64,000 nucleotides of DNA from Candidatus Pyrohabitans jungbluthii (GTDB lineage: Archaea > Hydrothermarchaeota > Hydrothermarchaeia > Hydrothermarchaeales > BMS3B). Position numbers and translations under genes: made by a program. The stretch lies in assembly GCA_002010065.2 (NCBI GenBank), contig MTMD02000015.1, positions 97,768-161,767 on the forward strand, in the 5' to 3' direction. Numbering within the stretch: position 1 is the first letter of the stretch; each line of letters begins with the position of its first letter. The notes beneath the pieces were generated by a model. The model had not been told where the DNA came from. It saw only the letters and a program-made list of their open reading frames with translations, and did no database searches. Positions 3,705 through 35,407 of this stretch are shown piece by piece.

Positions 3705-3745
3705 GGGGACATACAACAGGTTTTATTGTTTAGGAGTTGAATAAT

Positions 3746-6325: not shown

Positions 6326-6419
6326 GGAGATTAAATTCGGCGAGGAGTAGATAAAACTTAGCCCCCGTAAGTTTTAACAGGCATTGACTGAGATATAACA
6401 TAACCGCGAGGATGAGGCG

Positions 6420-6638: not shown

Positions 6639-7417
6639 AGCTAGGAGCTATGAACAACCCGGGCGAAGAGGTTACTGCGCAGGTCAGGTTTATCGCCAGC
6701 AATGGCTTTGAGTTTGTGGAGCTCGCAATTGAGGCGCCTGAAGCTACGCCTGAATTGCTTAAGGAGAAAGAACAGGAGCTCAGAGATATACTCGAGGGCT
6801 ACAAGGTTGAAGTGGTGGCGCACCTGCCCTGGTACTTTGAGATTGCCCACCCCTACACCAGAGTAAGAGATGCATTTCTGGAAGAGGTGCACTTGGCGCT
6901 TGACGTCGCCGCTGCCTTCGACGCCCGCCTCGCTGGGCTGCACCTCCACAGGCTGCCAAAGTTTTTCAGGGAGAAGCAGCTGGAGATGCATATCTCAGCA
7001 CTTCACCAGGCGCTTGCCTTTGCAGAGGAGGTTGGGATAAAGCTTTGCATTGAAAACTCAGATCTGCGCAGCTTCCCCGCGGAGAGCGTCGCAAAGGTGC
7101 TAGAAGCTCTGCCCGAGCTTGGACTGGTGCTCGACGTGGGGCATGCACACATAGGCGCAACCAGCGAGGAGGTGCTGAGATTTATTCGCGCCTTTCGTCA
7201 TCGCATTGTGCATGTGCATGCCCACGACAACAATCTCAAAGACGACCTCCACCTGCCCATAGGCGCTGGCGCAATAGAGTGGGAGCGCATTTTGCCTGAG
7301 CTTAAAAGCTTTTACAATGGCAGAGTGACGCTGGAAATCCATTCCCGCGATCCAGACTACCTGCTGATAAGCAGGGAGAAGTTTCTGAAACTATGGAATC
7401 AAGAAGCAGCAAAGTAA
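6635..7417 (+). CDS. Sugar phosphate isomerase/epimerase (xylose isomerase-like TIM barrel)
   Basis: 260 aa with a family-like pattern (LCIEN, LDVGHAH, HVHAHDN, TLEI). Confidence 0.65.
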   Translation: MKLGAMNNPGEEVTAQVRFIASNGFEFVELAIEAPEATPELLKEKEQELRDILEGYKVEVVAHLPWYFEIAHPYTRVRDAFLEEVHLALDVAAAFDARLAGLHLHRLPKFFREKQLEMHISALHQALAFAEEVGIKLCIENSDLRSFPAESVAKVLEALPELGLVLDVGHAHIGATSEEVLRFIRAFRHRIVHVHAHDNNLKDDLHLPIGAGAIEWERILPELKSFYNGRVTLEIHSRDPDYLLISREKFLKLWNQEAAK

Positions 7418-7496
7418 TTTTAATTTTATTTATCGACATGAAGGTTACCCGGAACTAAAGTTCCGGATGACGAAGCTCCGCTAACGTTAAACCCCC

Positions 7497-7580
7497 GCGG
7501 GGGTACCCGAGAGGCCAAAGGGGGCAGACTTAAGATCTGCTGGCTAAGTGCCTACGTGGGTTCGAATCCCACCCCCCGCA
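7497..7580 (+). tRNA. tRNA-Leu (anticodon UAA)
   Basis: Cloverleaf read by hand. Acceptor GCGGGGG/CCCCCGC, anticodon stem GCAGA/TCTGC with loop CTTAAGA, long variable arm GGC-TAAGT-GCC, T arm GTGGG-TTCGAAT-CCCAC, discriminator A. No encoded CCA. Confidence 0.9.
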
Positions 7581-7675
7581 TATCCGCATGGTTGGTTTTG
7601 AGGTTTGCTACTCTTAATACCTCGTTTTTGATGCCTACATGTTAGAAGCACTACTCAAGCCAATAAGGGATGTTT

Positions 7676-7750
7676 GTGGTGAGCGACTCCACGCCATTAA
7701 TTCACCTCGCCAAGATAGGTTGCCTAAACATACTGAAGAGAAGCATGTAA
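7676..7750 (+). pseudogene. Remnant of a PIN-like (DUF3368-type) toxin N-terminus
   Basis: 24 codons, VVSDSTPLIHLAKIGCLNILKRSM then stop. They match the typical N-terminus of DUF3368/PIN-like proteins, but the rest is missing. Lies in an AT-rich stretch just 3' of tRNA-Leu. Confidence 0.3.
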
Positions 7751-7957
7751 TGGCAAGGTAGACAAACCTTTTGCATGGTTTTATTCTAACATTGTGTTGC
7801 GATATCAATTTTTCCCGCAGTGCGCTATTCCTCTTCAAAACCTGTCTAAGACTGTTAAATTTGTAGCATGTAGATGGTTGTGCACACGAATACCATTCTG
7901 TGCTTTGAAAGTCAAACTTTATATACTAAAAAATTTAAAATTTAAAAAGGTGGGAAG

Positions 7958-8137: not shown

Positions 8138-9976
8138 ATGTATTTACCCCTTGCTGAAGTGGAGATAAGCGGCTGGTTGCTCTTGGCGATAGGCTTCTGT
8201 GTAGGCGTGCTCGCCGGCTTCTTTGGTATTGGGGGCGGATTTATTGTCACGCCTGCGCTCAACATCTTCGGCTTTCCAATGGCTTATGCCATAGGCACAG
8301 ACCTGTCGCAGATAATGGGCAACTCCATTGTGGCTACTTTTAAACACCGGAAGCTGGGCAACGTCGATCTGCGCCTGGGGTTCTTTATGATTATAGGCAC
8401 CGCCATAGGTGTGGAGGTGGGCAAAGAGGTGGTGCTCTACCTGGAGGAGATTGGCAAAGTGGGCAGCGTTGTGAGGTCTATCTATATTCTGCTCCTTGGT
8501 GGAACGGGCGCCTACATGCTCTTCGACTACTGGAAGTTTAAGAAGGAAGAGGAGGCGGGAGAGGAGAAGAAGGTGGTGACGGAGCGTGTGGGTAGCAAGC
8601 TCTCTGAGATGGTGCACCGAATAAATCTCCCGCCGAAGGTTGCCCTGCCACAGTCGAAAATAAAGTCCATCTCTCTGTGGGCAATTCTGCTGGTGGGCTT
8701 CATCACCGGTTTTCTCGCCGGCTTCCTCGGCGTTGGCGGCGGATTTATACGCATGCCTGCGATGATATACGCGCTGGGCGTGCCTACAACCATCGCGATA
8801 GGCACAGATTTGTTCGAGATAATATTCTCCTCTGCCATTGGTGCATTCCTCTATGCCACGGAGGGAAGAGTGGAGATAGTTGCCGCTGCGGTGATGGTGT
8901 GCGGCTCAGCGATAGGGGCGCAGATTGGTGCCTTGGCAACGAGCTATGTGCGCGGTATGAAGATACGCTTCTACTTCGCTTTAACAATACTATTTGCCGC
9001 AATCAGCGTGGTGATGAAGCAGCTCGCTGTCAGCCTTTCCATTCCTGTGCTTAGCACCTACGCAGGTTACCTCATCCTCTCAGTTGCAGGTTTAATGACC
9101 CTGAACATTACCCTGAGCACAGCCAAGGGTGTAATAGAGGAGAGGGCGGTGTATCCTGCTGTGAAGCGCAGGCTTCGCATACTCCTCGCCACAGGTGGCT
9201 CGCACCACGCTCTGCGCGCGATTCGCCTAGGCGCGCGACTTGCGAAGGGCTATGGTGCAGAGGTAACGCTGCTGGTGGTTAAGGACCCGAAAGAGGAGAT
9301 TCCCGTTGCTGAGGTGCAGCGCAGCGCAGGCAAAGTGCTAAAGGAGCTTGGGGTAAAGGCTGAGCTCACTGTGAGGCATGGCAACCCCGCCAAGGAGATA
9401 CTTAAGGCTTCCAAAGAGTACGACCTCCTCGTCATAGGTTCCCACGGAACGCGCAGTATAACAGAACACCTGCTGGGGGACAACGCCACACACATAGTGG
9501 AGAATATGAAGACCTCAACGCTTGTGGTTAAGCGGAAGGCGGAGGTCACCAAGATTCTCGCCTGTGTTAACCTGCCCCGCTACCGCGAGGCTGTTGTCAG
9601 ACGTGCAATAGAGCTTGCAAAGATTCTAAACGTACCTCTTGAGTTCCTGTATGTGCTACCTGAGCCGCTTATATACCCGATACGCCGCCTTCACCTGAGC
9701 AGCGAGGAGATTATGGAGCTTTACCCGGAGAAGCGCGAGGCTGCTGAGGAGATTATCAAGCTCGCTAAGAGCGAGGGTGTTAAAGCAAGCGTCAAATTCA
9801 GAGAGGGCATACCAGAGGAGGAAATACTGCTCGAGAAGCGGGAAATCGGCGCAGACCTCGTGATTCTGGGCGACTCTGGCTGGAGGGGCATACTCGGAGA
9901 GCTAATAGGCTCCCTTTCTGGGCACATAGTAAAGCATGCCCGCGTCTCTGTGCTTGTAGTGCATCGCAAGGCTTGA
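8138..9976 (+). CDS. TauE/SafE-family anion exporter fused to two C-terminal universal stress protein (USP) domains
   Basis: The N-terminal ~330 aa are polytopic with duplicated GIGGGFIVTPAL / GVGGGFIRMPAM motifs. The C-terminus carries two USP-like units (LLVIGSHGTRS...STLVVK and LVILGDSGWRG...VSVLVVH). Confidence 0.7.
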   Translation: MYLPLAEVEISGWLLLAIGFCVGVLAGFFGIGGGFIVTPALNIFGFPMAYAIGTDLSQIMGNSIVATFKHRKLGNVDLRLGFFMIIGTAIGVEVGKEVVLYLEEIGKVGSVVRSIYILLLGGTGAYMLFDYWKFKKEEEAGEEKKVVTERVGSKLSEMVHRINLPPKVALPQSKIKSISLWAILLVGFITGFLAGFLGVGGGFIRMPAMIYALGVPTTIAIGTDLFEIIFSSAIGAFLYATEGRVEIVAAAVMVCGSAIGAQIGALATSYVRGMKIRFYFALTILFAAISVVMKQLAVSLSIPVLSTYAGYLILSVAGLMTLNITLSTAKGVIEERAVYPAVKRRLRILLATGGSHHALRAIRLGARLAKGYGAEVTLLVVKDPKEEIPVAEVQRSAGKVLKELGVKAELTVRHGNPAKEILKASKEYDLLVIGSHGTRSITEHLLGDNATHIVENMKTSTLVVKRKAEVTKILACVNLPRYREAVVRRAIELAKILNVPLEFLYVLPEPLIYPIRRLHLSSEEIMELYPEKREAAEEIIKLAKSEGVKASVKFREGIPEEEILLEKREIGADLVILGDSGWRGILGELIGSLSGHIVKHARVSVLVVHRKA

Positions 9977-11006: not shown

Positions 11007-11402
11007 ATGAGCACAAGAACAGGAGAGGTAAGGGAAATCAAGGTTGGCAAGTATGTGGTCATCGATGGCGAACCTTGCAAGGTAGTGAGCTATACCACTG
11101 CGAAGACAGGCAAGCACGGCCATGCGAAGGCAAACGTTGTTGGTATTGGCATATTTGACGGGGTTAAGCGCACCCTGGTTGCACCTGTGGATGCGAAGGT
11201 AGAGTTTCCAATAATAGACAAGCGCGTGGGACAGGTGCTTGCGATAATGGGCGATACGGTGCAGATAATGGACATGGAGACCTATGAGACCTTTGAAACC
11301 AAGATGCCTGCACCAGATGATATCGAAGGCGAGCTTAAGGAAGGCGTGGAGGTTGAATACATAGTAGCGATGGAGAGGCGTAAGTTAACGAGGGTGCGCT
11401 AA
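11007..11402 (+). CDS. eif5a: Translation initiation factor 5A
   Basis: Hypusination loop [14 protein letters not shown]. 131 aa, with GAGAGGAGG upstream of the start. Confidence 0.9.
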
Positions 11403-11403
11403 G

Positions 11404-12282
11404 GTGACTGTTTATTCCCTTCCTTCTACCTTCGGGAGGAGGGAGCTTGGTGTTGAGGAGGCAAGCTACGTCGTAGCTGGCATACCCTTCGACTCCAGTG
11501 AGAGCTACCGTTCTGGCTCGCGGGAGGCTCCGCAGGCGATACGCGAAGCCTCGCGGGAGATCGAGGACTTCGACATGCTTGAGGATTTCGACCTGCTTGA
11601 GCTAGCTATAGCGGACATTGGCGATATAGAGGTCTCCTTCGGGAGCAACGAGGAGACAAGGAAGCGTGTTGTTGAAACTGTGAGGTTTATACGGGATAAT
11701 CATGCTGTGCCCGTACTTTTAGGCGGAGAGCACACTATCTCTGCCTTTGCGATTGAAGCCTTTCCTGAGGACACCCTGTTCTTGAGTTTCGACGCCCACC
11801 TGGATTTCCGGGAGGATTACATCAACAACCCCTTCTCCCATGCATGTGTGCTTCGCCGTGCTGCGGAGCACTTGGGCTACGAGAACATCCTAGCGGTAGG
11901 TGTGAGAAGCGCATGCAGGGAGGAGCTGGAGGACGCAAAGAGGCTTGGTGTGAGCTTTATACCCTTTGATGAGTGCTACAACCTCGAGGCGCTGGAGAGC
12001 AGGCTGAGAAAGACTGTTGAAGGAAGGAAGGTCTACCTATCCATAGATATGGATGTCTTCGACCCGAAGGATGCTCGCGGAGTTGGCAACCCCGAGCCTC
12101 CTGGCTTCTTTTTCTTTGACTTTCTGCAGATTCTGGATTTTATAAAAGCTTGCAAGCTCGTGGGCTTTGACGTAACCGAGGTAATTCCTCGCTACGATGC
12201 TTACACGCCAGTGCTTGCAGCCAAGTTGATTTTCAAGGTGCTTGCAAGGTATGAGAAGAGATTAAAAGGCGCTATCCATTGA
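11404..12282 (+). CDS. speB: Agmatinase (ureohydrolase family)
   Basis: Mn-binding motifs GGEHTIS, FDAHLDFR and SIDMDVFDP. GTG start 1 nt after the aIF5A stop. Confidence 0.8.
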   Translation: MTVYSLPSTFGRRELGVEEASYVVAGIPFDSSESYRSGSREAPQAIREASREIEDFDMLEDFDLLELAIADIGDIEVSFGSNEETRKRVVETVRFIRDNHAVPVLLGGEHTISAFAIEAFPEDTLFLSFDAHLDFREDYINNPFSHACVLRRAAEHLGYENILAVGVRSACREELEDAKRLGVSFIPFDECYNLEALESRLRKTVEGRKVYLSIDMDVFDPKDARGVGNPEPPGFFFFDFLQILDFIKACKLVGFDVTEVIPRYDAYTPVLAAKLIFKVLARYEKRLKGAIH

Positions 12283-17525: not shown

Positions 17526-18518
17526 TCATTCCTTTTTGTACATGGCTATACGCTGGGTAAACCTCTCCTCTTTGTAAATCTTATACCCGAATTCCAGCTC
17601 TACTTGGGCGAGCCTTTCAAAACCTTCGCTGCGCAGCGTTGCGGAGAGCACATCCCTTGAGAACTTCTCATCTGCAATGGGGCGCCAGATTGCAAGCTCC
17701 CATAAATCCTGGGGGTAGAAGTCCCCGCACTTCTCAGCTTCAATGGGCTCCAGCAGGAGAAGCTTTCCTCCGCGCTGCAGAAGCTCTGCCGCATTTCTGA
17801 GCGCTCCCGTGGCATCTTCCACATACTCGAGCAAAGCGTCCACAATCACCCAGTCACAGCTTTCATTGCGAAGGGGCACAGCATGCTCAACATCGTAGGC
17901 GAGAAAGCTTCCGTAGCTGAGCCACTCCTTCACGCGCCTCAGTATGGTGGTTGAGAGATTGCCACATATCAGCCTGGCGTTGTTGTGCTTTGCCTTTTGC
18001 AGATAGCTTTTAATCCCGGTGGCTGCATCAAACACAACCTCCCTCATGCGCGGGTTGAGCAAGCTCTCGAAGGCGGCTATACGACGCATCGCAAGCTCGT
18101 CGGGCTCACTCCTCCTCCCCCTGCTATCCTCTGCAGGGATGCTGCGCCTCTCAAAGAGCTCATAAAAGCGCTTCCAGGGCACCACCCTAATCGAGTACCT
18201 CAGCTTCGGCGAGAGTTTCGCAGCCCTGCCACGGTTGTCCAGCTCGAGTTTAAGCTTTTCGCTCGCGGAGGAGAATTCCACCTCAAGCTTATCTCCGCGA
18301 GGGTTAAGCGCTGAGATGCGGTACTCTCTGCCCTTGCCCACTCTCGGCATTATGGCGATGTACACATTGCCCTCGGGAAGCTCTGCTCCGGTGAAGCTAC
18401 CCAGCCTCTCGCGGGAGTAGAGCTTCAGAAGCGCATACTCACCTTTGCTGAGCCTCTCCACTCTAACCGGGAGGTGAATCGCCCTCTTTTTACCCCTGCG
18501 CAGCGCAACCAGCGTCAT
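17526..18518 (-). CDS. Two-domain protein: unknown N-terminal domain + class I SAM-dependent methyltransferase-like C-terminal domain
   Basis: The C-terminal half has VFDAATGIKSYL (degenerate motif I), a DWVIVDALLEYV acidic loop and GGKLLLLEP. 4-nt overlap with the FmdE-like gene. Confidence 0.5.
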   Translation of the reverse strand: MTLVALRRGKKRAIHLPVRVERLSKGEYALLKLYSRERLGSFTGAELPEGNVYIAIMPRVGKGREYRISALNPRGDKLEVEFSSASEKLKLELDNRGRAAKLSPKLRYSIRVVPWKRFYELFERRSIPAEDSRGRRSEPDELAMRRIAAFESLLNPRMREVVFDAATGIKSYLQKAKHNNARLICGNLSTTILRRVKEWLSYGSFLAYDVEHAVPLRNESCDWVIVDALLEYVEDATGALRNAAELLQRGGKLLLLEPIEAEKCGDFYPQDLWELAIWRPIADEKFSRDVLSATLRSEGFERLAQVELEFGYKIYKEERFTQRIAMYKKE

Positions 18519-19240
18519 ATCTCCACTTTTTCTAGCTCTCGAATCTCAAAATCACCGCTGCAAAGCCTGCACACGCCATTGCTGAGCCTCGTCGCCTCTG
18601 TAATTTCGTTGCACACCGTGCAGCGCTTCGGCGAGGCTATGTACTGCATATCCAGAGGGTACATGAGCTTCGAGAGGTCAACCTCAACGCGGGTGACAAT
18701 AAAAAGCTCAGAGTCGCTCATCCTGTGCCACTTTAATATAAGTTCCCTCTCTATTTTCTGAAGCCGCTTTCGCTCAGCCAGCGCTTTTTCAAGGTCCCCC
18801 TTCGCATAAACGCGATAGAACTGCTCTAGCTGCTTGCCATAGTCGATGTGCTCCTCGTCAACGTCTGGCTTGCACTTAATTCTCAGCGCTTCCCCGGTGG
18901 CGAGGTTTCCGAAGATGGCGGCAAACTTTCCGTGGTCCAAGAAGACCAGCCTACCGCTTCCAAAGCTGCACTGCGTGGCTGCGGCTATACCATCGGCGGC
19001 GCATGTGAGAATCTCAACTGCCGCCACAAGGTCACGCTTTCTTTTCAGATCAAGCAGGCGCACTGCAAGGTGCCCCATCCTCGTACCTAAGTAGCTGGCG
19101 GTGCATATATGCCCATGCACCTTTGGCACCGTTTCAAGAGCCTCACGCAGCGAGGGGTAGCTTGGCGCGCGCTTCCCATGCCCGCGCTTCCTCATGCTCG
19201 GCAGCAAATCTTCTATTTCAAAGTCTGGAGTATAGCTCAT
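18515..19240 (-). CDS. FmdE/FwdE-family protein with C-terminal zinc ribbon
   Basis: HGHICTASYLGTRMG and ILTCAADGIAAATQCSFGSGRLVFLDHGKFAA (FmdE pattern). C-terminal CTVCNE...CRLCSG. Confidence 0.7.
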   Translation of the reverse strand: MSYTPDFEIEDLLPSMRKRGHGKRAPSYPSLREALETVPKVHGHICTASYLGTRMGHLAVRLLDLKRKRDLVAAVEILTCAADGIAAATQCSFGSGRLVFLDHGKFAAIFGNLATGEALRIKCKPDVDEEHIDYGKQLEQFYRVYAKGDLEKALAERKRLQKIERELILKWHRMSDSELFIVTRVEVDLSKLMYPLDMQYIASPKRCTVCNEITEATRLSNGVCRLCSGDFEIRELEKVEI

Positions 19241-20580
19241 CCTGTAGCCTCCTTTTCTAGGGCTATGCTCCTGAAGGAGCGCCTCTCCACACCGGGGAGG
19301 ACGCGCAGCATGGCGGGAGCCTCTCCGGGTGGTGCTACATTGGGTACTTCAACCTTATAAAGCCTCGCGAGGGCGTCGAAGAGCAAAGTTCTGAGCTCAT
19401 CCTGCGAGAAGTGAGAGGTTTCAATCACCGGATTGAGGTGGTGGTACTCCCACCAGTTGCATGAGCGCAGCTTTAATCCAAGCTCAGAGGCGTGCCTGAA
19501 CAGGTAGGTGTCGGGGTAGGGAGTTTGAACAGCAAACGTAGCCTCGCCTCCCAGCGAGCACACCTCCTCGGCTAAGCGTATGGTAGCCTCCACGCTTTCC
19601 CTAGTGTCCCAGGGGTGCCCTATCATGAAGCCGCATACCGGCGTTATCCCCTCGCGTACAAACTTACGAACTACGTCGAGTAGCCTCTCCAAGGCGATCT
19701 CCTTCTTTATGGCGTCCACCACCTCCTGAGAGCCGCTCTCTATACCGAAGCGCACAACCTCGCAGCCTGCGCTCGCCATGGCTTCAATCAGTTTCTCATC
19801 AACGTGGTCAAGGCGAAGCTCCGCGTACCACCGCATCCCTAACCTCGACACGAGGGAGCATATCCTGAGGGCGCGTTTCCTGTCGTAGGCGAAGTTGGGG
19901 TCTATGACGAAGAAGGAGCTCAACCCAAGGCTGCGAAGATGCTCAACTTCGCGAGCCACGCTCTCAGGGGTGCGCATTCTCAGCTTACCGGACATGGCGC
20001 GGGAAGAGCAGTACACGCAGCTGTAGGCGCATCCTCGCGACGTCGCTATTGCGCCTGGCAAAGCGTAGGCTTTCAGGTTGAGCAGGTGCCTCGCGGGTAG
20101 AGGGAGCGCATCCAGGTCGCGAACCCGCCACACGCCGTTGCTCTTCGCTTTGCCTTCGCTGAGGTAGGCGATGCCCTTAACGCTGCGCACGTCTTTGCCC
20201 TTCTCAAGGCGGGACACGAGCTCAGCGAAGGCGAGTTCACCCTCGCCGCGAACCGCAAAGTTAAACCCGTGCCTAAGCACCTCCTCATAGCGAAAGGTGG
20301 CGTGAATCCCGCCTATCGCCACGAGCTTTCCCTGCTCCTTCGCCGCCTCGAGTACCGCAAGCGCATAGGGGTAGTTCTGTGTGTAGCTGGAAACCCCGAC
20401 AAGCTCAGCTTCTGCGATGCGCTGCTCAAGCTTCGCTTTCCCCAGGTTAAGGTCAAGAATCTCTACGCGATGCCCTCGCTGCTCAAGCATCGCCGCTATG
20501 TACGCAAGTCCCAAGGGGGGCATCGCCACCCTCTTCTCCGAGGCGCTGCTGTGGGGAACCTCTACGAGAAGCACATCCAA
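19237..20580 (-). CDS. Class B (cobalamin-binding-domain) radical SAM enzyme
   Basis: N-terminal Rossmann-like B12-binding-type segment (PPLGLAYIAAMLEQRGHRVEILD...VAIGGIHATF), then CAYSCVYC (CxxxCxxC) and a radical SAM core. Confidence 0.85.
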   Translation of the reverse strand: MDVLLVEVPHSSASEKRVAMPPLGLAYIAAMLEQRGHRVEILDLNLGKAKLEQRIAEAELVGVSSYTQNYPYALAVLEAAKEQGKLVAIGGIHATFRYEEVLRHGFNFAVRGEGELAFAELVSRLEKGKDVRSVKGIAYLSEGKAKSNGVWRVRDLDALPLPARHLLNLKAYALPGAIATSRGCAYSCVYCSSRAMSGKLRMRTPESVAREVEHLRSLGLSSFFVIDPNFAYDRKRALRICSLVSRLGMRWYAELRLDHVDEKLIEAMASAGCEVVRFGIESGSQEVVDAIKKEIALERLLDVVRKFVREGITPVCGFMIGHPWDTRESVEATIRLAEEVCSLGGEATFAVQTPYPDTYLFRHASELGLKLRSCNWWEYHHLNPVIETSHFSQDELRTLLFDALARLYKVEVPNVAPPGEAPAMLRVLPGVERRSFRSIALEKEATG

Positions 20581-20822
20581 GGTACTTCCTCCACAAAGCC
20601 CTTCTCCATCCAGAGCTTCAGCAGCCGCTTAGCCTCTTCGCGGTGCTCTGAAAACTCCCGCTCTATTAACTCCTCAACCTCCTGCATGGTTTTACCGTGC
20701 ACTTCTTCCCAGAGTCTCGTCGCAGCTTCGTTGAGCACGTATATGCCATCCCTCGCCATGAGGATAACCCTCTTGCCCTCGCGCTTCCATACCATATTCG
20801 CCCTCGCCAGCCTGTACTCCAT
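20562..20822 (-). CDS. PqqD-family protein (RiPP recognition element-like peptide chaperone)
   Basis: 86 aa. The pattern GIYVLNEAATRLWEEVHGKTMQEVEELIEREF...EEAKRLLKLWMEKGFVEE is typical of PqqD/MftB-like proteins. GGGGAGG sits 8 nt upstream of the ATG. Confidence 0.7.
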   Translation of the reverse strand: MEYRLARANMVWKREGKRVILMARDGIYVLNEAATRLWEEVHGKTMQEVEELIEREFSEHREEAKRLLKLWMEKGFVEEVPWMCFS

Positions 20823-20823
20823 G

Positions 20824-21516
20824 CTACAACCTCCCCAGTGCGCGGAGCAGCTCCTCTACTCGTGAGCGCTTCACCACGCCTGCTTCGCACGCCGCGCCGC
20901 GAAAGCCCAGTATATCGCTTCCTATGCTAACCGCACGCTCTAGGTGTGGGATGCGGAGCGAGCCCGAGATGCAGGTCTCCATCCCGCGTTCATGGGCGAG
21001 GTCAACAAACTCGCGAAGCCTCTCCACAGAGGCGAAGTCCAGGATGTTTCGCCCGTCCTTTACTGCGGTGTCCAGCATAATAACATCACAGCTTACGTGC
21101 TTCACAAATTCGAAGGGGTTGGCACTGCCAGTGCGCCAGTAGTCAGCATAGCCAGAGATAATCAGCTTAGCTCCACCACCCTCCTCGGCAAGCGCACGCT
21201 TTAAAGCCCTGGAGAGTTTCTCCGCCTGCTCTGTTGTCTTAACGCCGTAGAAGGAGGCGACAACGTAGTCCACACCTAAACGAGCCACGCCGTATGCAGC
21301 CAAGCTTGCGGTGCCTGGCTTGAAGTCTAGGTCGCCTATGCTCGCCGCAACCTCAATGCGAGGCGGAAGAAGCTCCATCACTTCCTTTATCACCCAGGGC
21401 TTGTTGGCGCCCAGCGTCCCCTCCCCGGGGTTCTTTATGTCGAGAATATCCACGCCGCCTGCTGCCAGAACCTCGCTTGCCTCTTTCTTGTCCTTTATGC
21501 TTATGAGCACCCTCAT
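20824..21516 (-). CDS. mfnB: (5-formylfuran-3-yl)methyl phosphate synthase family protein (MfnB/DUF556)
   Basis: MRVLISIKDKKEASEVLAAGGVDILDIKNPGEGTLGANKPWVIKEV plus a later MLDTAVKDGRNILDF. Collinear with MfnB of Methanocaldococcus as I recall it. Confidence 0.75.
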   Translation of the reverse strand: MRVLISIKDKKEASEVLAAGGVDILDIKNPGEGTLGANKPWVIKEVMELLPPRIEVAASIGDLDFKPGTASLAAYGVARLGVDYVVASFYGVKTTEQAEKLSRALKRALAEEGGGAKLIISGYADYWRTGSANPFEFVKHVSCDVIMLDTAVKDGRNILDFASVERLREFVDLAHERGMETCISGSLRIPHLERAVSIGSDILGFRGAACEAGVVKRSRVEELLRALGRL

Positions 21517-22028
21517 CTTTCCATCCCCAGCACCGTCAGAGCCTTGCTCACCTCGTAGGCGGTGATGCGCTTGCCCTTCCGCAGCTTCGAGATCTCGGCG
21601 CGGTAACTGCTGTAGTCTTCAGGGGTAAATCTTAGTTTGGGCGTGGAAAAGAGCGCCACCCAGGCGAAGTGGTTGAGAAAGGGCAAAGCTTCAGGCTCGA
21701 GAAGGCTGAGCACGAACGACGCTACTCTAACATCGACGCCGCTCAGGCTAATAAGCTTCCTAAGCGCTTTCTCCGGGGGCAGCGCAAAAGCCTCTTCGGT
21801 GGTGTGCTTGAGTATGTTGGGCTCATTTGCGCTCGCATACGCGGCTAGTGAAGCGTCGACGAAAGCGGCGATACGCACCAACTCAAAGTATGTTAGATAC
21901 TTTGGCTCGCGTTCAGCAAGCACACGGGAGATCTTAAGCATGGCTTCCTCTCGCTGGTATGGCCTACTCCCTGCGCTGAAACGCGCCGCAAGGGTACGAA
22001 GCTTCTCTTCGCTTATGTGGTGAAGCAA
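21513..22028 (-). CDS. Hypothetical protein, weak helix-hairpin-helix / OGG-fold-like signature
   Basis: 171-aa ORF with a TTG start (an in-frame ATG at codon 30 is an alternative). LISLSGVDVRVASFVLSLLEPEALPFLNHFAW resembles the HhH segment of OGG-fold proteins, but function is unassigned. 4-nt overlap with mfnB. Confidence 0.3.
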   Translation of the reverse strand: MLHHISEEKLRTLAARFSAGSRPYQREEAMLKISRVLAEREPKYLTYFELVRIAAFVDASLAAYASANEPNILKHTTEEAFALPPEKALRKLISLSGVDVRVASFVLSLLEPEALPFLNHFAWVALFSTPKLRFTPEDYSSYRAEISKLRKGKRITAYEVSKALTVLGMER

Positions 22029-22075
22029 TTTTGACCCTCGTGAAATTTTTATTTAACTCCGCCTCATAACATGCT
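22029..22075. promoter_or_regulatory. 47-bp divergent promoter region with a shared A/T box
   Basis: AAATTTTTATTTAA at 22043-22056 lies about 20-25 nt from both the minus-strand TTG (22028) and the plus-strand ATG (22076). This suggests short or leaderless transcripts in both directions. Confidence 0.4.
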
Positions 22076-22237
22076 ATGGCAATCTGGAAATGCCCCCGCT
22101 GCGGCGCTACAAAGCAGGTGGTGTGCCCCGTATGCGGCGCGGACAAGCGTGCCGGCGAGACCTGCGATTACTGTGGAAGCGAGTTCTCCTTCACCCTGTG
22201 CCCAAAATGCGGATATGAGCAGAGGCATAGCAGATAA
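22076..22237 (+). CDS. 53-aa double zinc-ribbon-like peptide (four CxxC pairs), below ORF-track cutoff
   Basis: Hand translation: MAIWKCPRCGATKQVVCPVCGADKRAGETCDYCGSEFSFTLCPKCGYEQRHSR. The listed ORF 22071..22265 is a different frame of the same DNA. Confidence 0.5.
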   Translation: MAIWKCPRCGATKQVVCPVCGADKRAGETCDYCGSEFSFTLCPKCGYEQRHSR

Positions 22238-22270
22238 AATTTTTATACGTGCTAAGCGAGGATAAGCCCA

Positions 22271-23008
22271 ATGGCGTTGCTTCAGATTCAAGGTATACGC
22301 AAGAGTTTCTCTGGCTTGGTCGCATTGAAGAACGTGAACTTCGAGGTGAGAGAGGGAGAGATTCTTGGCTTAGTCGGCCCCAACGGGGCGGGTAAGTCAA
22401 CGCTTATAAACATAATCTCCGGGATATACCGCCCTGACAGCGGTAAGGTGGTGTTCAGGGGCAGGGAGATAACAGGGCTGCCGCCCCACAGGATATGCCG
22501 CCTGGGCATTACCAGAACCTTCCAGAATGTGGAAACCTTTCCGGAGCTCACTGCGTTGGAGAATGTGCTGGTGGGCGCGCTCTTCGGAAAGAGAAATGGC
22601 GACCGAAGCGAGGCAATGGAAAGAGCTGAAGAAATGCTGCGTTTTGTGGACTTCCCGAGGGAGAAGTTTGAGGTTAAGGTTAGAAATCTCAACGTTGGAG
22701 AGCTTAAAAAGCTCCAGCTAGCTCGTGCCCTTGCAACTGAGCCCAAGCTTCTCCTCCTAGACGAGGTGACAACGGGTTTGAATCCGAAGGAGAGCAAAGA
22801 TGCGGTGAAGATGATAAGGAAAATCCGCGATAGTGGGGTTACAATACTCATGGTGGAGCATATAATGAGGATAATCATGGGGGTGAGCGACCGCATAGTG
22901 GTGCTCAACTACGGGGAGAAGATAGCCGAGGGCACACCCCGCGAGGTTGCCAGCGACCAGCGTGTTATTGAATCCTACTTGGGTGAGGCGTACAGTTTTG
23001 AGGGTTAG
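22271..23008 (+). CDS. livG: Branched-chain amino acid-type ABC transporter ATP-binding protein LivG
   Basis: Walker A GPNGAGKST, signature LNVGELKKLQLARAL, Walker B LLLLDE, LivG-type C-terminus VIESYLG. Confidence 0.85.
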   Translation: MALLQIQGIRKSFSGLVALKNVNFEVREGEILGLVGPNGAGKSTLINIISGIYRPDSGKVVFRGREITGLPPHRICRLGITRTFQNVETFPELTALENVLVGALFGKRNGDRSEAMERAEEMLRFVDFPREKFEVKVRNLNVGELKKLQLARALATEPKLLLLDEVTTGLNPKESKDAVKMIRKIRDSGVTILMVEHIMRIIMGVSDRIVVLNYGEKIAEGTPREVASDQRVIESYLGEAYSFEG

Positions 23009-23010
23009 AC

Positions 23011-23715
23011 ATGCTACGCGTGGAGAAGGTAAATGCGGCCTACGGCTCACTTCAGGTGCTATGGGATGTGAGCTTCGAGGTAAGAGAGGGAGAGATAGTT
23101 ACCATAATCGGCTCCAACGGTGCGGGTAAGACAACGATAGCGAATGTGATAACGGGCTTGCTAAAGCCACTCTCCGGCAGGGTTACCTTCGACGGCGAGG
23201 ACATAACCAACATGCCCGCGAATGAGCGCGTTAAGCTAGGAATTGCGCTTGTGCCCGAGGGGAGAGAGATATTTCCAAAGATGACGGTGCTGGACAACCT
23301 GCTGCTGGGCGCATACACGGTGAGGAACAAGGGCGAGGTTGAGGAGAGGCTTAAGTGGGTTTACGACATCTTCCCAAAGCTTAAAGAGCGCGAGACCCAG
23401 CTGGCTGGGACACTGAGCGGTGGAGAGCAGCAGATGGTCGCTATAGCTCGAAGCTTAATGGCAAACCCGAAGCTTCTGATTCTGGACGAACCATCTCTTG
23501 GCCTTGCGCCGATAGTTGTGATAAAGGTGTTTGAGATTATAGAGAGGCTCAATCGAGAGGGGGTTACCATACTGCTTTCTGCGCAGAATGTGTACCGCGC
23601 CCTGGAAATATCGTCAAGAGCGTACGTGCTTGAGACGGGCAGAATAACCTTAGAGGGCAGGGGCAAAGAGCTGCTGGAGAATCCGTACGTTAAAGAGGCT
23701 TATTTAGGAGTTTAG
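23011..23715 (+). CDS. livF: Branched-chain amino acid-type ABC transporter ATP-binding protein LivF
   Basis: GSNGAGKTT, LSGGEQQMVAIARSL, LLILDEPS, C-terminal VKEAYLG. Confidence 0.85.
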   Translation: MLRVEKVNAAYGSLQVLWDVSFEVREGEIVTIIGSNGAGKTTIANVITGLLKPLSGRVTFDGEDITNMPANERVKLGIALVPEGREIFPKMTVLDNLLLGAYTVRNKGEVEERLKWVYDIFPKLKERETQLAGTLSGGEQQMVAIARSLMANPKLLILDEPSLGLAPIVVIKVFEIIERLNREGVTILLSAQNVYRALEISSRAYVLETGRITLEGRGKELLENPYVKEAYLGV

Positions 23716-26441: not shown

Positions 26442-27905
26442 ATGTTGCTCAAGGATTTTCTCAGACCGAGTCTTGAGGCTCTCATCGAGGAGAGCAATGT
26501 GATTAAGGAGGACAAGCCTCTTAAGAGCTTGGCCTATGTGGGGATGCCCTGCCAGATTCAGGCTGTGAGGAAGGCGCAATTTTTTGAGGTTAAGTCAAAG
26601 CAGGAGTGGCCCCGCAGGATTAAGGTTACCCTCGGGCTCTTCTGTGCGGAGAGCTTCCCCTACCGCGAGCTGGTGAAGCTCGTGGAGAGCAAAGGCATTA
26701 GCATGGATAAGATAAAGAAGTGGGACATAAAGGGCAAGCTTCTGGGGTACCACGATGAGGGTGTGCTCAAGATACCCCTTAAGGAGGCGAAGAAGTTCGC
26801 CCGTGAAAACTGCCACTACTGCCTTGACTACACCGCTGAGCTCGCGGACATAAGCGTCGGCGCTGTGGGCTCTCCCAAGGGCTGGAATACGGTAATAGCG
26901 AGGACGCCGCGCGGCTTGGCGATAGTCGAAGGTGCCATACACGAGGGCTACCTCGAGACCAGAGAAGTGGACGAGGGCGATAAAGGTTTAGGGCTGCTGA
27001 GGAAGCTCTCAAAGCGCAAGTTTAAGGGCGCGTGGAAGAACAAGGCGAAGAAAGAGGAGAAGGGCGCCAAGGTAATGCACCTGGATACAACGCATGAGCG
27101 CGACCTGGAGAAGCTGCTCTCTCTCACCACTGTAGAGCATCGCATAGACGAGCTCATACGCGATGTTGTTGAACCTGGGCTGTGCGTCACCTGCGGCGCA
27201 TGCGAGGCGAGCTGTGCAGAGAAGATTATTAAGATAGACGAAGATGGCACGCCCCAGAAGCTGAAAGATTGCGAGTCCACAGACTGCGGGCGATGCTATT
27301 CGCTCTGCCCGCGCACAACACTGCCAATAGATTTAATTGAGGAGCACCTCTTCGGGAGCAGGCGCTACCAGTTTGAGAAGCGCATTCTGGGGCAGTACAT
27401 CGCCATATTCTCCTGCCGCGCTGCCAGCGAAGGCATAAGGAAGCGTGGACAGGACGGAGGCGTGGCCACGGCGCTTCTGAAATACATGCTCGACCATGGT
27501 ATCGTCGACGCTGCCGTGAGCGTTACCCAGGGTGATAAGCCCTGGTATCCGGTGAACTACGTCTCCACCAGCAGGGAAGACCTTATGAGAAGCGCCGGTA
27601 CAATATACAGCACAGCCCCCACGATAATCGCCGCGAAGCGTGCACTCAAGCAGCACGAAGAGTTCTCCAAGTACTACAGTTTCCTTGTATCGAAAGGCTT
27701 TTTACCAGAGCTGGCGATCGCTCAGGAAGAGGCGAGCAAGGCCAAGAAGGGCGAGGTTGTAGTGCAGGTTGACGAGGAAGAGCTTAAGCGCAGGCGTGCA
27801 AAGATAGAGGCGGCGCTTGAGCGCATCTCTAAGCCAGCAGTGAAGATGATGATAGAGCAGGGCAAGCATGAGAAAGCTATAGAGATGCTTGTGAAGGAGA
27901 GATGA
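26442..27905 (+). CDS. FrhB/FdhB/FpoF-family F420-binding iron-sulfur flavoprotein with permuted domain order
   Basis: Residues about 30-200 match the FrhB C-terminal part (VGMPCQIQAVRK, CHYCLDYTAELADISVGAVGSPKGWNTVIART). Residues 248-290 hold two ferredoxin-type Cys motifs (CVTCGACEASC, CGRCYSLCP). Residues about 315-405 match the FrhB N-terminal part (RGQDGGVATALLKYML). Confidence 0.75.
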   Translation: MLLKDFLRPSLEALIEESNVIKEDKPLKSLAYVGMPCQIQAVRKAQFFEVKSKQEWPRRIKVTLGLFCAESFPYRELVKLVESKGISMDKIKKWDIKGKLLGYHDEGVLKIPLKEAKKFARENCHYCLDYTAELADISVGAVGSPKGWNTVIARTPRGLAIVEGAIHEGYLETREVDEGDKGLGLLRKLSKRKFKGAWKNKAKKEEKGAKVMHLDTTHERDLEKLLSLTTVEHRIDELIRDVVEPGLCVTCGACEASCAEKIIKIDEDGTPQKLKDCESTDCGRCYSLCPRTTLPIDLIEEHLFGSRRYQFEKRILGQYIAIFSCRAASEGIRKRGQDGGVATALLKYMLDHGIVDAAVSVTQGDKPWYPVNYVSTSREDLMRSAGTIYSTAPTIIAAKRALKQHEEFSKYYSFLVSKGFLPELAIAQEEASKAKKGEVVVQVDEEELKRRRAKIEAALERISKPAVKMMIEQGKHEKAIEMLVKER

Positions 27906-28726
27906 GCATGACGAACATAGGAGTGCTTAAAACTGGTAATATTGCCACTTCTCTCGTTTTAGAGCTTTTACTTGACGAGCGGGCAGACCGCGAGGATATT
28001 AGCGTTGAGGTGTTTTCCACAGGTGCAAAGATGCAGGCAGATGATGCGGAGAAGCTTCTCTCCCGCGTTGATCTCGACGCCTACGATTTAATACTGTACA
28101 CCACCCCCAATCCCAGCGCGCCAGGACCAAAGAAGGTGATAGAGGCACTCAAAGGCAAGCGCGCCATTGTAATTGGCGACGCTCCCGGGGTTAAGATGAA
28201 GGAGAAGCTGGAGGAGTATGGCTTAGGGTATATCTTTATCCTTGCGGACTCCATGATAGGGGCAAGGCGGGAGTTTTTAGACGCTACGGAGATGGCGCTC
28301 TTCAATGCGGACATGCTCAAGGTGCTCGCCGCCACGGGTGCGCTCCGCTTAGTGCAGGAAGAAGTGGACGCGGCGATAGCAGCTGTCAGGAATGGTGAGG
28401 ACTATCTGCCCCGCATTGTTGTAAACGCCGCCAAGGCTGTGGCGAGAGGAAGGTTCTCCAACCCATACGCCAAGGCGAAGGCGAGGGCTGCCTACGAGGC
28501 GGCGGCGCTGGTGGGAGAGCTTAATGTTAAGGGGTGCTTCGTCGTCAAGGAGGCGGAGAAGTACATCCCGATAGTAGCCGGTGCCCACGAGCTGCTGCGA
28601 AGCGCAGCCCGGCTGTGCGACGAGGTTAGAGAACTGGAAAAAGCCACAGACGCCCTTGTGAGGACACCCCACGCGAGAAGCGGAGAGGTGCTGAGCAAGA
28701 CAAAGCTGCTAGAGAAGCCAGAGTAG
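27902..28726 (+). CDS. mtd: F420-dependent methylenetetrahydromethanopterin dehydrogenase
   Basis: Collinear with Mtd as I recall it (LLLDERADREDI, NPSAPGPKK, IGDAPG, MIGARREFLD, MLKVLAATGA, VRTPHA). ATGA overlap with the upstream gene. Confidence 0.85.
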   Translation: MSMTNIGVLKTGNIATSLVLELLLDERADREDISVEVFSTGAKMQADDAEKLLSRVDLDAYDLILYTTPNPSAPGPKKVIEALKGKRAIVIGDAPGVKMKEKLEEYGLGYIFILADSMIGARREFLDATEMALFNADMLKVLAATGALRLVQEEVDAAIAAVRNGEDYLPRIVVNAAKAVARGRFSNPYAKAKARAAYEAAALVGELNVKGCFVVKEAEKYIPIVAGAHELLRSAARLCDEVRELEKATDALVRTPHARSGEVLSKTKLLEKPE

Positions 28727-30601: not shown

Positions 30602-31249
30602 TCACCTCGCCTCCATAATCGCCTTGATGCGCTTGAGTTTGAAGAAGTTCTCCCTCTCCATCTCGTCCAAGCGCATCTTTATGTACTTCACAGTAGCTTC
30701 AAGGCGGGGGATGAGCACATTCTCCAGCGCATTAACGCGACGCTTTGTGCTCTCTATCTCCTTGGCGAGGAGCTTTATGCTGCGCTCCACCTCAGCAAGC
30801 TGAACTACAGCAGCGAGAGCTTCTTCGAATCGCGCCGCGGCTTCGTCCAGCTGCGAGGTGGTGTCCGCCAAGCCGTAGCCACGTTCAATAACAGAGCGCG
30901 ATGTCTCCTGGAGCTCCAGCACTGGCACGCGCACGCCCATGATGCTCCGCGTGTAGGTCTCTATCCCAGGTGTCTCCTTGGCGGCGTAGGCACACTGGGT
31001 AACCTTCATCACACCCATGCTCGCCTGAGCCAATATTAAGGCGTTGAAGGCTTCGCGGAGCCTGGCTTCTGCCTGGCGCCGCGCTCCCTTCGCCTCTTCC
31101 AAAATATTGAAAAACTCCATTATAAGGGCGTCGCGCTTCTCCTTGAGCAGACGGTGTCCCTTCTTGGCGAGCTTCACCTTAGTCTTGAGCTTCAACAGCT
31201 CCATTCGCGTCGGGTTGACGCCCTCTATAAGGTCTGCCATCGTCGCCAC
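30602..31249 (-). CDS. atpD: A-type ATP synthase subunit D
   Basis: 215 aa with typical [11 protein letters not shown]...[12 protein letters not shown]. Follows atpB by 1 nt. Confidence 0.9.
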
Positions 31250-31250
31250 C

Positions 31251-32648
31251 CTAACTGCTGCGATACTTGGGGTGGTACTTCTGGATGAACTCGTCCTTAA
31301 TGCGCTTGAGCTCGCGCTCTGGCAGAATGCTCAGCAGATCCCAGCCGATCTCCAGGGTGCGCTCTATATCGCGGTCCTCGTCCCTGCCCTGTGCCACGAA
31401 CTCGCGCTCAAAACGATCCGCGAACTCCAGGTACTTCTTATCCTTCTCTGTCAGAGCTTCCTCACCTACCACCGCCACGAGGTCGCGCAGATCTCTGCCC
31501 TCAGCGTAGGCGCTGTATAACTGGTCGCTCACGTTGGCATGGTCTTCGCGGGTTCTGCCCTTGCCAATACCGCCCTTCATTAAGCGCGAAAGCGAAGGCA
31601 GCACGTCCACGGGTGGGTAGATACCCTTGCGGTAAAGCTCACGAGACAAGACGATCTGTCCCTCGGTGATGTAACCTGTGAGGTCAGGTATTGGGTGGGT
31701 TATATCATCGTCCGGCATGGTTAATATAGGCATCTGAGTTATTGAGCCCTTGCTTCCAGCTACTCTGCCAGCGCGCTCGTAGATCGTGGCCAGGTCGGTG
31801 TACATGTAGCCGGGGTAGCCTCTTCGTCCGGGCACCTCACCGCGAGCGGCGGCTATTTCGCGCAAAGCCTCGCAGTAGTTAGTCATATCTGTGAGGATAA
31901 CCAGAACGTGCATTCCCTGCTCGTACGCAAAGTACTCCGCCGTGGTTAGAGCCATTCTCGGCGTAATTATTCGCTCAATCGCGGGGTCGTCGGCGAGGTT
32001 GAGAAACGCTGTAACCTTCTCCAGCGCGCCGGTGCGCTCGAAGTCGCGCATGAAAAAGCTTGCCTCCTCATAGGTTATACCCATCGCCGCGAACACCACT
32101 GCGAACTCTTCCTCCTCGCCAAGAACTCGTGCCTGTCTCGCAATCTGAGCCGCGAGTTCATTGTGGGGCAAGCCTGAACCTGAGAAGATGGGCAGCTTCT
32201 GCCCGCGCACAAGGGTGTTCATCCCGTCTATGGTGGAGATACCCGTCTGTATGAAGTCCCTGGGGAACTCCCTTGCCGCGGGATTTATCGGGTAACCGTG
32301 GATATCCAGCTCGTCCTCGGGTATTATCTCAGGTCCCTTATCTATTGGTCTGCCAGTACCATCGAATATCCTGCCCAGCATGTCCATGCTCACGGGCAGC
32401 TTCACAGTCTCGCCAGTGAAGCGCACCTTTGTCTTTGAGGTGTCTATTCCGCGGGTGCCCTCGAATACCTGCACCACTGCCTTGCCCATGTGAGCTTCAA
32501 GCACCTGACCGCGGCGCTTCTCCCCGAGGGGGGTCTCAATCTCAACCACTTCGCCGTAGCCCACGCCCTCTACGCCTTCAACAACCATGAGGGGGCCCGC
32601 AACCTCGGTTACTGAGGTATACTCCTTAATCGTGCTCTTCGCCACCAT
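31251..32648 (-). CDS. atpB: A-type ATP synthase subunit B
   Basis: 465 aa with strong family similarity ([25 protein letters not shown]). Confidence 0.95.
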
Positions 32649-34415: not shown

Positions 34416-34435
34416 AATCTACCACCTCATGACCA

Positions 34436-34756: not shown

Positions 34757-34764
34757 TGCACCAC

Positions 34765-35382: not shown

Positions 35383-35407
35383 AACACAAAACCTCCTCTC
35401 GGGTGAG

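Follow-up and report, generated by a model that had tools for sequence, protein, structure and literature searches.

The six genes described here lie between positions 17526 and 22028 of a 64,000-nucleotide stretch of DNA (the window) from Candidatus Pyrohabitans jungbluthii, a member of the Hydrothermarchaeota. They bring together a synthase of the MfnB type, a PqqD-like protein, a radical S-adenosylmethionine (rSAM) enzyme, an FmdE-like protein and a methyltransferase (MT), and may constitute a methanofuran-linked tailoring or maturation module centred on the FmdE-like protein. No description of this combination was found in the literature on FmdE, MfnB, PqqD, cobalamin rSAM enzymes and archaeal peptides that are ribosomally synthesised and modified after translation (RiPPs), in agreement with a first-pass annotation of the same DNA, which had not recognised it as a described pathway.

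The six open reading frames (ORFs; g1 to g6, Table 1) follow one another on the minus strand with nearly no non-coding DNA. ATGA overlaps can be read at 21513-21516, 19237-19240 and 18515-18518, g2 and g3 are separated by a 1-nt gap (position 20823), and g3 and g4 overlap by 19 nt (20562-20580), all as listed in the first-pass annotation. Because of the 4-nt overlaps, the six genes are taken to be one translationally coupled operon. The 19-nt overlap is conditional on the TTG start of g4, which is credible because g4 orthologues open with the same M-D-L-L-L-V-E at an ATG in the equivalent place. GGAGG-type sites are located 4-15 nt 5' of g3, g4 and g5, and weaker Shine-Dalgarno-like sites precede g6 (GTGGAG) and g2 (GGGGATGG). 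Fifteen nucleotides before the start of g1, an A/T box at 22043-22056 (given in Table 1 in its minus-strand reading) is a candidate archaeal TATA region that would serve near-leaderless transcripts in both directions. The list of ORFs contains no precursor-like ORF inside the operon, as had been noted before.

Table 1. Genes and other features of the operon and its divergent neighbour (RRE, RiPP recognition element; 4-HFC-P, 4-(hydroxymethyl)-2-furancarboxaldehyde phosphate; SAM, S-adenosylmethionine).
Feature	Positions	Strand	Length	Description
g1	21513-22028	minus	171 aa	OGG-like helix-hairpin-helix protein, probably non-catalytic
g2	20824-21516	minus	230 aa	MfnB-type 4-HFC-P synthase (furan moiety of methanofuran)
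g3	20562-20822	minus	86 aa	PqqD-like / RRE protein
g4	19237-20580	minus	447 aa	class-B-type rSAM enzyme; TTG start
g5	18515-19240	minus	241 aa	FmdE-like zinc protein
g5 N-terminal extension	19136-19240	minus	~35 aa	MSYTPDFEIEDLLPSMRKRGHGKRAPSYPSL; cluster-specific, candidate PqqD docking site
g6	17526-18518	minus	330 aa	two-domain SAM methyltransferase
zr53	22076-22237	plus	53 aa	double zinc ribbon / rubredoxin-like, four CxxC pairs; divergent
Divergent spacer	22029-22075		47 nt	contains the A/T box TTAAATAAAAATTT

The product of g3 had been called a PqqD or RRE protein from its letters, and it does pass the Pfam threshold for PF05402, with 29.7 bits over residues 19-75 against a gathering score of 23.4. 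Because the NCBIfam PqqD equivalogs are not reached (18 vs 46 bits), it is regarded as PqqD-like and not as PqqD itself. The top PDB match of a profile built from seven g3 orthologues is TbiB1 (5V1U), a lasso leader-binding protein (E 0.0055), and two further lasso-peptide PqqD chaperones are matched weakly (E 0.15-0.34).

The adjacent enzyme g4 carries a B12-binding domain (PF02310, 90 bits, E 1e-25) and a Radical_SAM domain (83.5 bits) with the core C184-x3-C188-x2-C191, whose three cysteines are invariant in 24 orthologues. Further conserved cysteines are found at 241, 273 and 316, and a C-terminal region of ~110 aa terminates in the invariant motif RRSFRSIA. The first-pass identification of a class B rSAM enzyme with a B12-type N-terminus is confirmed by the two domains and the CxxxCxxC core; g4 is classed as a cobalamin-type enzyme of this kind, with cobalamin binding and methyl transfer as predicted activities. 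Like the class B rSAM methyltransferases (ApyD, rSAM_ocin_1, PhpK, TokK, CysS and TsrM), it has an N-terminal B12 domain; its PDB matches to TokK, CysS and OxsB take in that domain, and its nearest uncharacterised relatives occur with PqqD and SPASM maturases. Unlike them, it scores far under the NCBIfam cut-offs, the best models (TIGR04013 at 145 vs 251 bits, BchE, ApyD, PhpK and AprD4) giving ~120-145 bits against cut-offs of 251-750. The closest solved core, matched over the rSAM core only, is that of the dehydratase AprD4, and the reaction of g4 is itself a prediction. No grouping with enzymes of known non-peptide function was seen, and no NCBIfam equivalog cut-off was reached.

The g4 orthogroup is sharply bounded, with at least 46% identity within it and at most 41% for the next relatives. 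The nearest outgroup rSAM enzymes (35-41% identity) are encoded in RiPP-like clusters with PqqD, SPASM maturases and small ORFs: one enzyme is fused to PqqD and follows a 67-aa ORF, others share their clusters with SPASM maturases, ORFs of ~99 aa occur three in tandem, and in one case a PqqD gene is surrounded by three paralogous B12-rSAM enzymes. Since these outgroups are RiPP-like and PqqD is placed as ancestral in the tree described below, g4 is read as a descendant of peptide-recognising systems. Another outgroup B12-rSAM gene (37% identity; 798-4234 in loci L017/L018) is preceded by that of a 143-aa ribbon-helix-helix protein and stands tail-to-tail with the gene of a tungsten-type aldehyde:ferredoxin oxidoreductase.

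Among characterised systems, the pair g3-g4 can be compared with PqqD/PqqE of pyrroloquinoline quinone and MftB/MftC of mycofactocin. As in these, a stand-alone PqqD-family gene lies directly 5' of the rSAM gene and overlaps it, in a cofactor-type context without protease, immunity or exporter genes. In contrast to them, the rSAM enzyme has a B12 domain, lacks a SPASM domain and scores negligibly with the PqqE and mycofactocin models, there is no neighbouring precursor, several lineages do without PqqD, and the partners MfnB, FmdE and two-domain MT are not known from those systems. A different parallel is offered by the enzymes that modify methyl-coenzyme M reductase (MCR), such as Mmp10, the TIGR04014 glutamine C-methyltransferase and McmA, in which archaeal B12-rSAM and class I MT enzymes methylate a protein of C1 metabolism post-translationally. 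However, g4 reaches 91 vs 360 bits for TIGR04014 and has no Mmp10 match, and those enzymes act without an RRE. The Hydrothermarchaeota lineage is, moreover, reportedly without MCR.

The assignment of g2 to MfnB in the first-pass annotation holds, with 205 bits for PF04476 and a match to the MJ1099 structure 4RC1 (E 2e-57 over residues 3-226). Residues D26 and K28 of g2, together with the D and K of its motif MLDTAVKDG, align with D25/K27 and D151/K155 of MJ1099, where we take D25 and D151 to be the numbers of the two Asp residues. The residues essential in MfnB are the Schiff-base Lys27, Lys155 and two Asp (PMC6604932, PMC11365854). The idea of an inactive MfnB, based on Lys85 as a supposedly essential residue that is Val in g2, was withdrawn, given that these papers name Lys27 and Lys155, both conserved. 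Because it falls below the NCBIfam equivalog cut-offs (225 vs 341 bits for NF002573, 219.5 vs 304 for NF002575), g2 represents a divergent MfnB subfamily; its capping loop reads EAGVVKRS, compared with KGGDRNNG in MJ1099. The operon shares with described methanofuran biosynthesis (MfnA-F) an MfnB-type synthase that keeps the two lysines and flanking Asp residues, but that pathway has no rSAM, FmdE or MT step, and no other mfn gene is recognised in the window.

The name FmdE derives from co-transcription with genes for subunits of formylmethanofuran dehydrogenase. FmdE genes have been seen with these operons for ~30 years; the solved structure of the enzyme complex does not contain the protein. 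In g5, the family assignment (PF02663, 100 bits; PDB relatives 2GVI and 3D00) and the zinc ribbon proposed by the first-pass annotation are both upheld, the latter by a C-terminal treble-clef C-x2-C...C-x2-C that aligns with residues 174-197 of 2GVI. The metal-ligand motif VHGHIC...LTCAADG is invariant and agrees with the Zn/Ni site described for the family (PMC2954224). This is the best-conserved protein of the cluster, with 72% identity where the rSAM enzyme has 59-62%. Like the FmdE/FwdE proteins of formylmethanofuran dehydrogenase operons (2GVI, 3D00, 2GLZ), g5 combines the HGHxC...C metal site with a treble-clef zinc finger and stands in a methanofuran context, here through MfnB. Unlike theirs, its gene has no fmd/fwd catalytic genes beside it and is coupled to those of an rSAM enzyme and an MT, and the protein begins with an extension of ~35 aa in which an acidic-hydrophobic EIEDLL segment is followed by a basic, Gly-rich one; solved FmdE proteins have no such extension, and their HGHxC lies at about residue 15.

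Two observations made on other FmdE proteins lend outside support to the FmdE-centred account given below. In Ta1109, an unidentified ligand lies 1.8 A from the metal-ligand Cys, which its authors considered consistent with a thioester bond (PMC2954224). In addition, FmdE is found fused to molybdopterin-binding and UPF0066 (tRNA-methyltransferase-type) domains (PMC2954224, PMC11237513). Hydrothermarchaeum profundi (L001) encodes three FmdE paralogues within 20 kb (4122-4667, 11357-12127 and 18754-19260); a UbiE-like methyltransferase gene lies divergently beside one of them, and another carries a fused DksA/TraR-type zinc finger and adjoins an MJ0043_C protein. With the UPF0066 fusion and this second pair, FmdE and methyltransferases are recurrently found as partners.

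The last gene of the operon, g6, had been described as a two-domain methyltransferase, which its AlphaFold model (mean predicted local distance difference test, pLDDT, 89.4) confirms. An N-terminal eight-stranded beta domain (~14-114) is connected by a disordered linker with an invariant RSEP to a C-terminal class I SAM MT; the family motif FYPQDLWE.A.WRP is likewise invariant. The Methyltransf_11 match is confined to residues 164-254, and the MT domain matches the small-molecule methyltransferases MitM, TleD and RebM in Foldseek (E 1e-10). A fold search with the whole protein was dominated by the catalytic domain, and the N-terminal domain drew no classification. The family comprises 28 clusters among 5.8 billion proteins, all of them full-length two-domain proteins and all from the MfnB-rSAM-FmdE-MT system. 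A role in RNA modification, considered on account of the helix-hairpin-helix protein, FmdE-TrmO fusions and the beta domain of the MT, is unsupported, as the MT fits small-molecule enzymes and no RNA-binding domain was identified.

Apart from the window and two near-identical copies of it, gene order was compared in 13 related loci, non-redundant and with rSAM identities of 51-84%; a metagenome scan contributed only four new orthologous loci (L022, L024, L025 and a second copy of the H. profundi locus). The rSAM gene is most constantly accompanied by MfnB (11/13), FmdE (9/13) and the two-domain MT (8/13). A g3-type gene is present in seven loci, always at the 5' side of the rSAM gene. The first-pass annotation had put the PqqD-rSAM pair in the foreground and had not anticipated that PqqD is dispensable; the pair is real, but it is not the invariant core, PqqD being optional and absent from six loci, with an Amidohydro_2 gene occupying its slot in one clade (type B below). 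The complete block, including the divergent zr53, recurs at 84, 62 and 59% rSAM identity (L004, L006 and L003, respectively), and rSAM-FmdE-MT is found again in L001/L008, L012, L009, L019 and L020.

Five architectures can be distinguished. Type A (window, L003-L006, L022) has zr53 divergent from g1-MfnB-PqqD-rSAM-FmdE-MT. Type B (L009, L019, L020) reads binding protein-permease-(DUF1284)-MfnB-Amidohydro_2-rSAM-membrane protein-FmdE-MT, and type C (L001/L008, L012) binding protein-permease-(PqqD)-rSAM-FmdE-MT. Type D (L007, L021) consists of an optional fusion of a zinc ribbon to a g1-like domain (zr-g1), MfnB, a short PqqD and the rSAM gene, and type E (L024, L025) of the zr-g1 fusion, MfnB and rSAM, with FmdE further downstream, after inserted genes, in L025, whose contig ends before any MT position. 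In four of these architectures, and down to 51% rSAM identity, MfnB stands directly 5' of the rSAM gene or of its PqqD/amidohydrolase slot. The block proposed from the window alone is therefore syntenic in related Hydrothermarchaeota, and its chance juxtaposition is excluded, because the flanking genes are wholly different between types and MfnB, rSAM, FmdE and MT nonetheless remain together.

Several genes accompany particular types. An SsuA/TauA-type binding protein and a permease are adjacent in five loci. The organometallic "SAO" system of Haft was considered for them and rejected, as the transporter resembles SaoX/SaoP weakly, with scores at family level, and the preprint contains no FmdE, B12 or methyltransferase component. 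Divergently upstream in types B and C and in L021 lie a gene for an Lrp/AsnC-like protein and one for an MSMEG_0568-type variant rSAM (NF045502, above cut-off), at 6308-7820 (minus) in L001, 1473-3016 (minus) in L019, 3341-4780 (minus) in L020 and 289-1825 (minus) in L021; the variant rSAM occurs without the Lrp/AsnC-like gene in L007 (2295-3353, minus), and the pair is absent from the 64-kb window. The alternative haem pathway (AhbAB/AhbCD), which this pair of AsnC-like protein and 350-aa rSAM resembled at first sight, is not supported, as NCBIfam places the rSAM in the MSMEG_0568/variant family and the AsnC-like protein gives only 22.6 bits for AhbB, its best match being Lrp-type regulators, below cut-off.

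A contig of Candidatus Pyrohabitans sp. JdFR-17 (Hydrothermarchaeota) matches the rSAM region of the window at 99% identity, and wherever the source is named the orthogroup comes from this phylum, except for one "Thermodesulfobacteriota" contig (L012; JAZFUP010000158.1, 4.8 kb, permease-rSAM-FmdE-MT). Because its permease and the H. profundi one share 69% identity, this is probably an archaeal contig mis-binned into a bacterial metagenome-assembled genome. The rSAM, MT and g1 families are almost confined to the Hydrothermarchaeota. These are subseafloor crustal-fluid archaea with fwdABCDEFG and a Wood-Ljungdahl pathway that uses tetrahydromethanopterin (H4MPT) (PMC6775978); no fmd/fwd genes occur in the window or in any related locus.

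The distribution of PqqD parallels that of the g5 extension. All PqqD-bearing loci with a known FmdE (window, L003-L006, L022, L001) have an extension with [FC][ED]IE[DP][LF]L before the basic segment, opening with FEIEDLLPSM, CEIEDLLPTM or FDIEPFLE. Where PqqD is absent, FmdE opens at once with the basic segment (MPKGKKGG... in L009, L019, L020; MKFPSL in L025) or has a degenerate MIEKEMTSM (L012). In a neighbour-joining tree, PqqD comes out as ancestral for the Hydrothermarchaeota clade and would have been lost independently at least three times, in clade B, in L012 and in L024/L025, and each loss for which FmdE is known coincides with loss of the extension motif. PqqD therefore appears to be an ancestral but dispensable member of the system.

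Across ~5.7e5 six-frame positions of all the sequence compared, the motif [EDR]IE[DP][LF][LFE] occurs in a single other place, which is the leader of a 32-aa peptide, where it takes the form IED[FL]. This peptide, MEKEKxEWKLK[IV]EDFEKAACYRDHGDYRP[VI]xE, is encoded in L021 (6490-6585, minus), L025 (599-694, minus) and L024 (963-1058, minus), with 75-81% identity and no NCBIfam family match. Its gene precedes that of an RRE-fused SPASM rSAM, is divergent from the zr-g1, MfnB and B12-rSAM genes and has a GGAGG site in L021, where genes for another SPASM rSAM, for a variant rSAM, for a methyltransferase and for a tetratricopeptide-repeat protein come next. The cluster is RiPP-like or peptide-cofactor-like and undescribed. 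A tblastn search at E up to 100 gave no homologue of the peptide or of its SPASM maturase from the 64-kb window, nor from any of the ten remaining non-redundant loci. The simplest reading of the shared motif, offered as a lead and not a result, is that the RREs of this lineage recognise an IED[FL]-type segment, which in the window would be borne by g5. A 41-aa ORF 5' of PqqD in H. profundi was discarded as a precursor, being AT-rich and not conserved.

The remaining two proteins, g1 and zr53, seem to belong together. No Pfam or NCBIfam family matches g1, and its family has just five close clusters among 5.8 billion proteins. The first-pass description of g1 as helix-hairpin-helix-like is borne out by its all-helical AlphaFold model (pLDDT 93.3), for which the best PDB folds in Foldseek are OGG1/Ogg glycosylases of this class (probability 0.99, E ~1e-2, template modelling score 0.45-0.49); distant relatives of g1 match the OGG-like families PF21790 and PF22175 weakly. 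Every member of the family has PF[LIV][NT] after the hairpin, at what we take to be the site of the catalytic Asp of HhH-GPD enzymes. Because that position is Asn or Thr throughout, g1 is probably a binding protein and not an enzyme.

The divergent zr53 matches Pfam DZR and Zn_Ribbon and an NCBIfam RCKP-type rubredoxin-like model, all under cut-off. In L003-L006 it is 77-100% identical at the same divergent position, which makes it more conserved than any enzyme of the cluster. In three loci, a zinc ribbon is fused N-terminally to a shortened g1-like domain, giving proteins of 142-146 aa (L021, 6706-7134; L025, 837-1277; L024, ~1190-1576). Given this Rosetta-stone link, zr53 and g1 are considered one functional unit and zr53 is counted as part of the cluster. 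As a two-part unit of their own, they would probably act as a nucleic-acid-binding regulator or, alternatively, as a rubredoxin-like electron donor. A 75-aa minus-strand ORF (22064-22291) that fully overlaps zr53 is probably spurious; a similar wrong-strand call (57 aa, 8370-8543, plus) covers the zinc-ribbon homologue in the gene annotation of L003.

Directly beside zr53, at 22271-23715 (plus), lie two LivG/LivF-type ABC ATPase genes, followed by one for a geranylgeranyl-reductase-like flavoprotein; the ATPase pair has no permease or binding-protein gene nearby and is conserved in the closest relatives only (L004, L005). Elsewhere the window encodes a CooS-type CO dehydrogenase of the Prismane family (1140-3086, minus), an FrhB-like protein with F420-dependent methylene-H4MPT dehydrogenase, Mtd (26442-28726, plus), an A-type ATP synthase operon (30602-35430, minus), a FolE2/MptA-type GTP cyclohydrolase (48875-49729, plus) and the molybdenum-cofactor genes MoaB-like, MobB and MoaA (59416-61702, plus). 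These are ordinary for the lineage and unlinked to the cluster.

The account that we favour, tentatively and at somewhat less than even confidence, is that of a Hydrothermarchaeota-specific, methanofuran-linked tailoring or maturation module centred on FmdE, in which PqqD would dock g5 on the rSAM enzyme with the MT acting alongside. The PqqD-like g3 would bind the N-terminal extension of g5 as an RRE binds a leader peptide, and would thereby dock g5 onto g4. The radical step of g4, most plausibly a cobalamin-mediated C-methylation, would then be directed at a residue of g5 or at a ligand held at its His2Cys2 metal/Cys site, and the translationally coupled g6 would add a conventional (heteroatom) methyl group. 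The coupling to MfnB would link the product to methanofuran or formylmethanofuran-dehydrogenase chemistry, the sole other known context of FmdE genes. This account draws on the synteny, on the narrow bounds of the rSAM, MT and g1 families, on the parallel loss of PqqD and the extension, on the match of g3 to TbiB1 and the RiPP-like company of the outgroup enzymes, on the strong conservation of g5 and its metal ligands, and on the recurrent partnership of FmdE with methyltransferases. Among the alternatives listed in the first-pass annotation, this favours the one in which FmdE is partner or client of a maturation pathway. In its most explicit form, g5 would be a leader-bearing client or carrier whose EIEDLL segment is read by g3, after which the rSAM enzyme and the MT would modify g5 itself or a furan-derived ligand on its metal/Cys site; stated this specifically, the proposal is rather unlikely.

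A number of observations weigh against an FmdE-centred module. Methylation by g4 is not assured, since the closest solved core is that of AprD4, which does not methylate. Neither fwd/fmd catalytic genes nor other recognisable mfn genes are present in the 64-kb window, and two loci (H. profundi and L012) are without MfnB. L007 and L021 have PqqD and rSAM genes without an adjacent FmdE or MT, so PqqD must bind something else there. The clade that has Amidohydro_2 in place of PqqD also adds the SsuA/TauA-type binding protein and permease. Finally, the correlation between PqqD and the extension rests on ~12 loci and three inferred loss events, and the shared motif is 4-6 residues long.

Some of these points, and others, would fit a pathway for a free small molecule, one that would start from the MfnB product and make or tailor a furan metabolite, for instance a methylated form of methanofuran or a different furan cofactor. 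An intermediate would be C-methylated or rearranged by the rSAM enzyme and O- or N-methylated by the MT, with FmdE as an accessory metalloenzyme and PqqD as a dispensable chaperone with no peptide client. The translational coupling of MfnB, its adjacency in most loci and its conserved active-site residues agree with this, as do the frequent absence of PqqD and the lack of an adjacent RiPP-type protease or exporter and of any precursor gene in the window. The same direction is indicated, also to the detriment of an FmdE-centred module, by the Amidohydro_2 gene in the PqqD slot of clade B (a family of metal-dependent decarboxylases/hydrolases), by the binding protein and permease adjoining in five loci, and by an MT fold nearest to the natural-product methyltransferases MitM, TleD and RebM. 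Nevertheless, we consider such a pathway unlikely. It leaves the joint loss of PqqD and the FmdE extension unexplained; no known small-molecule rSAM pathway has a PqqD/RRE, and the nearest relatives of this rSAM are all in peptide-type clusters. We know of no methylated methanofuran. The MfnA-F pathway, as far as known, requires neither an rSAM enzyme nor an MT (PMC11365854).

An archaeal RiPP, also among the alternatives of the first-pass annotation, is kept alive by the conserved 32-aa peptide at three related loci. Here the product would be a classical RiPP or peptide-derived cofactor whose precursor is encoded elsewhere in the Pyrohabitans genome, with FmdE, the MT and MfnB as further tailoring or attachment enzymes. 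It would be in keeping with the PqqD, SPASM maturases and small ORFs that accompany the outgroup rSAM enzymes, with the peptide and its RRE-fused SPASM rSAM encoded divergently beside cluster genes in L021, L024 and L025, and with the IED[FL] motif that the peptide's leader shares with the FmdE extension. The peptide and maturase are, however, the very elements without homologues in the window and the other ten loci (types A, B and C and L007), and L024 and L025, which carry the peptide, have no stand-alone PqqD. Neither a leader peptidase nor an exporter is adjacent in the window, and the MT and FmdE families are tied to the MfnB-rSAM-FmdE-MT system and not to the peptide cluster. On balance this explanation appears doubtful.

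That the operon merely places two unrelated modules on one transcript by compaction or inheritance, with g1 and MfnB serving housekeeping methanofuran synthesis and PqqD-rSAM-FmdE-MT acting separately, is very improbable, for even though H. profundi and L012 carry the second module without MfnB or g1, L007 and L021 carry MfnB-PqqD-rSAM without FmdE-MT, and part of the synteny may be inherited among loci of a single phylum, MfnB stays directly 5' of the rSAM gene or its slot through four architectures despite reshuffled flanks, and the 4-nt overlaps indicate translational coupling.

With this operon, an FmdE-like protein is placed in a four-to-six-gene system with clear enzymology (rSAM, MT, RRE and furan synthase), which makes FmdE function experimentally approachable. 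Even under the more ordinary readings, three lineage-specific families are defined, namely g1, the two-domain MT and the g4 rSAM clade. If FmdE is indeed the client of the module, RRE-guided rSAM chemistry would reach into an archaeal phylum and would include a cobalamin-type enzyme of the non-SPASM kind, and this suggests that RREs may be repurposed to dock a folded partner protein. There is also a hint of an unrecognised modification in the methanofuran-dependent C1 metabolism of subsurface carboxydotrophs. Should g5 prove to be a leader-bearing FmdE, the FmdE family would gain its first assigned function, and a folded protein of archaeal C1 metabolism would become a new case of RRE-guided modification, perhaps with a new protein-bound or carrier-assembled furan cofactor as the product.

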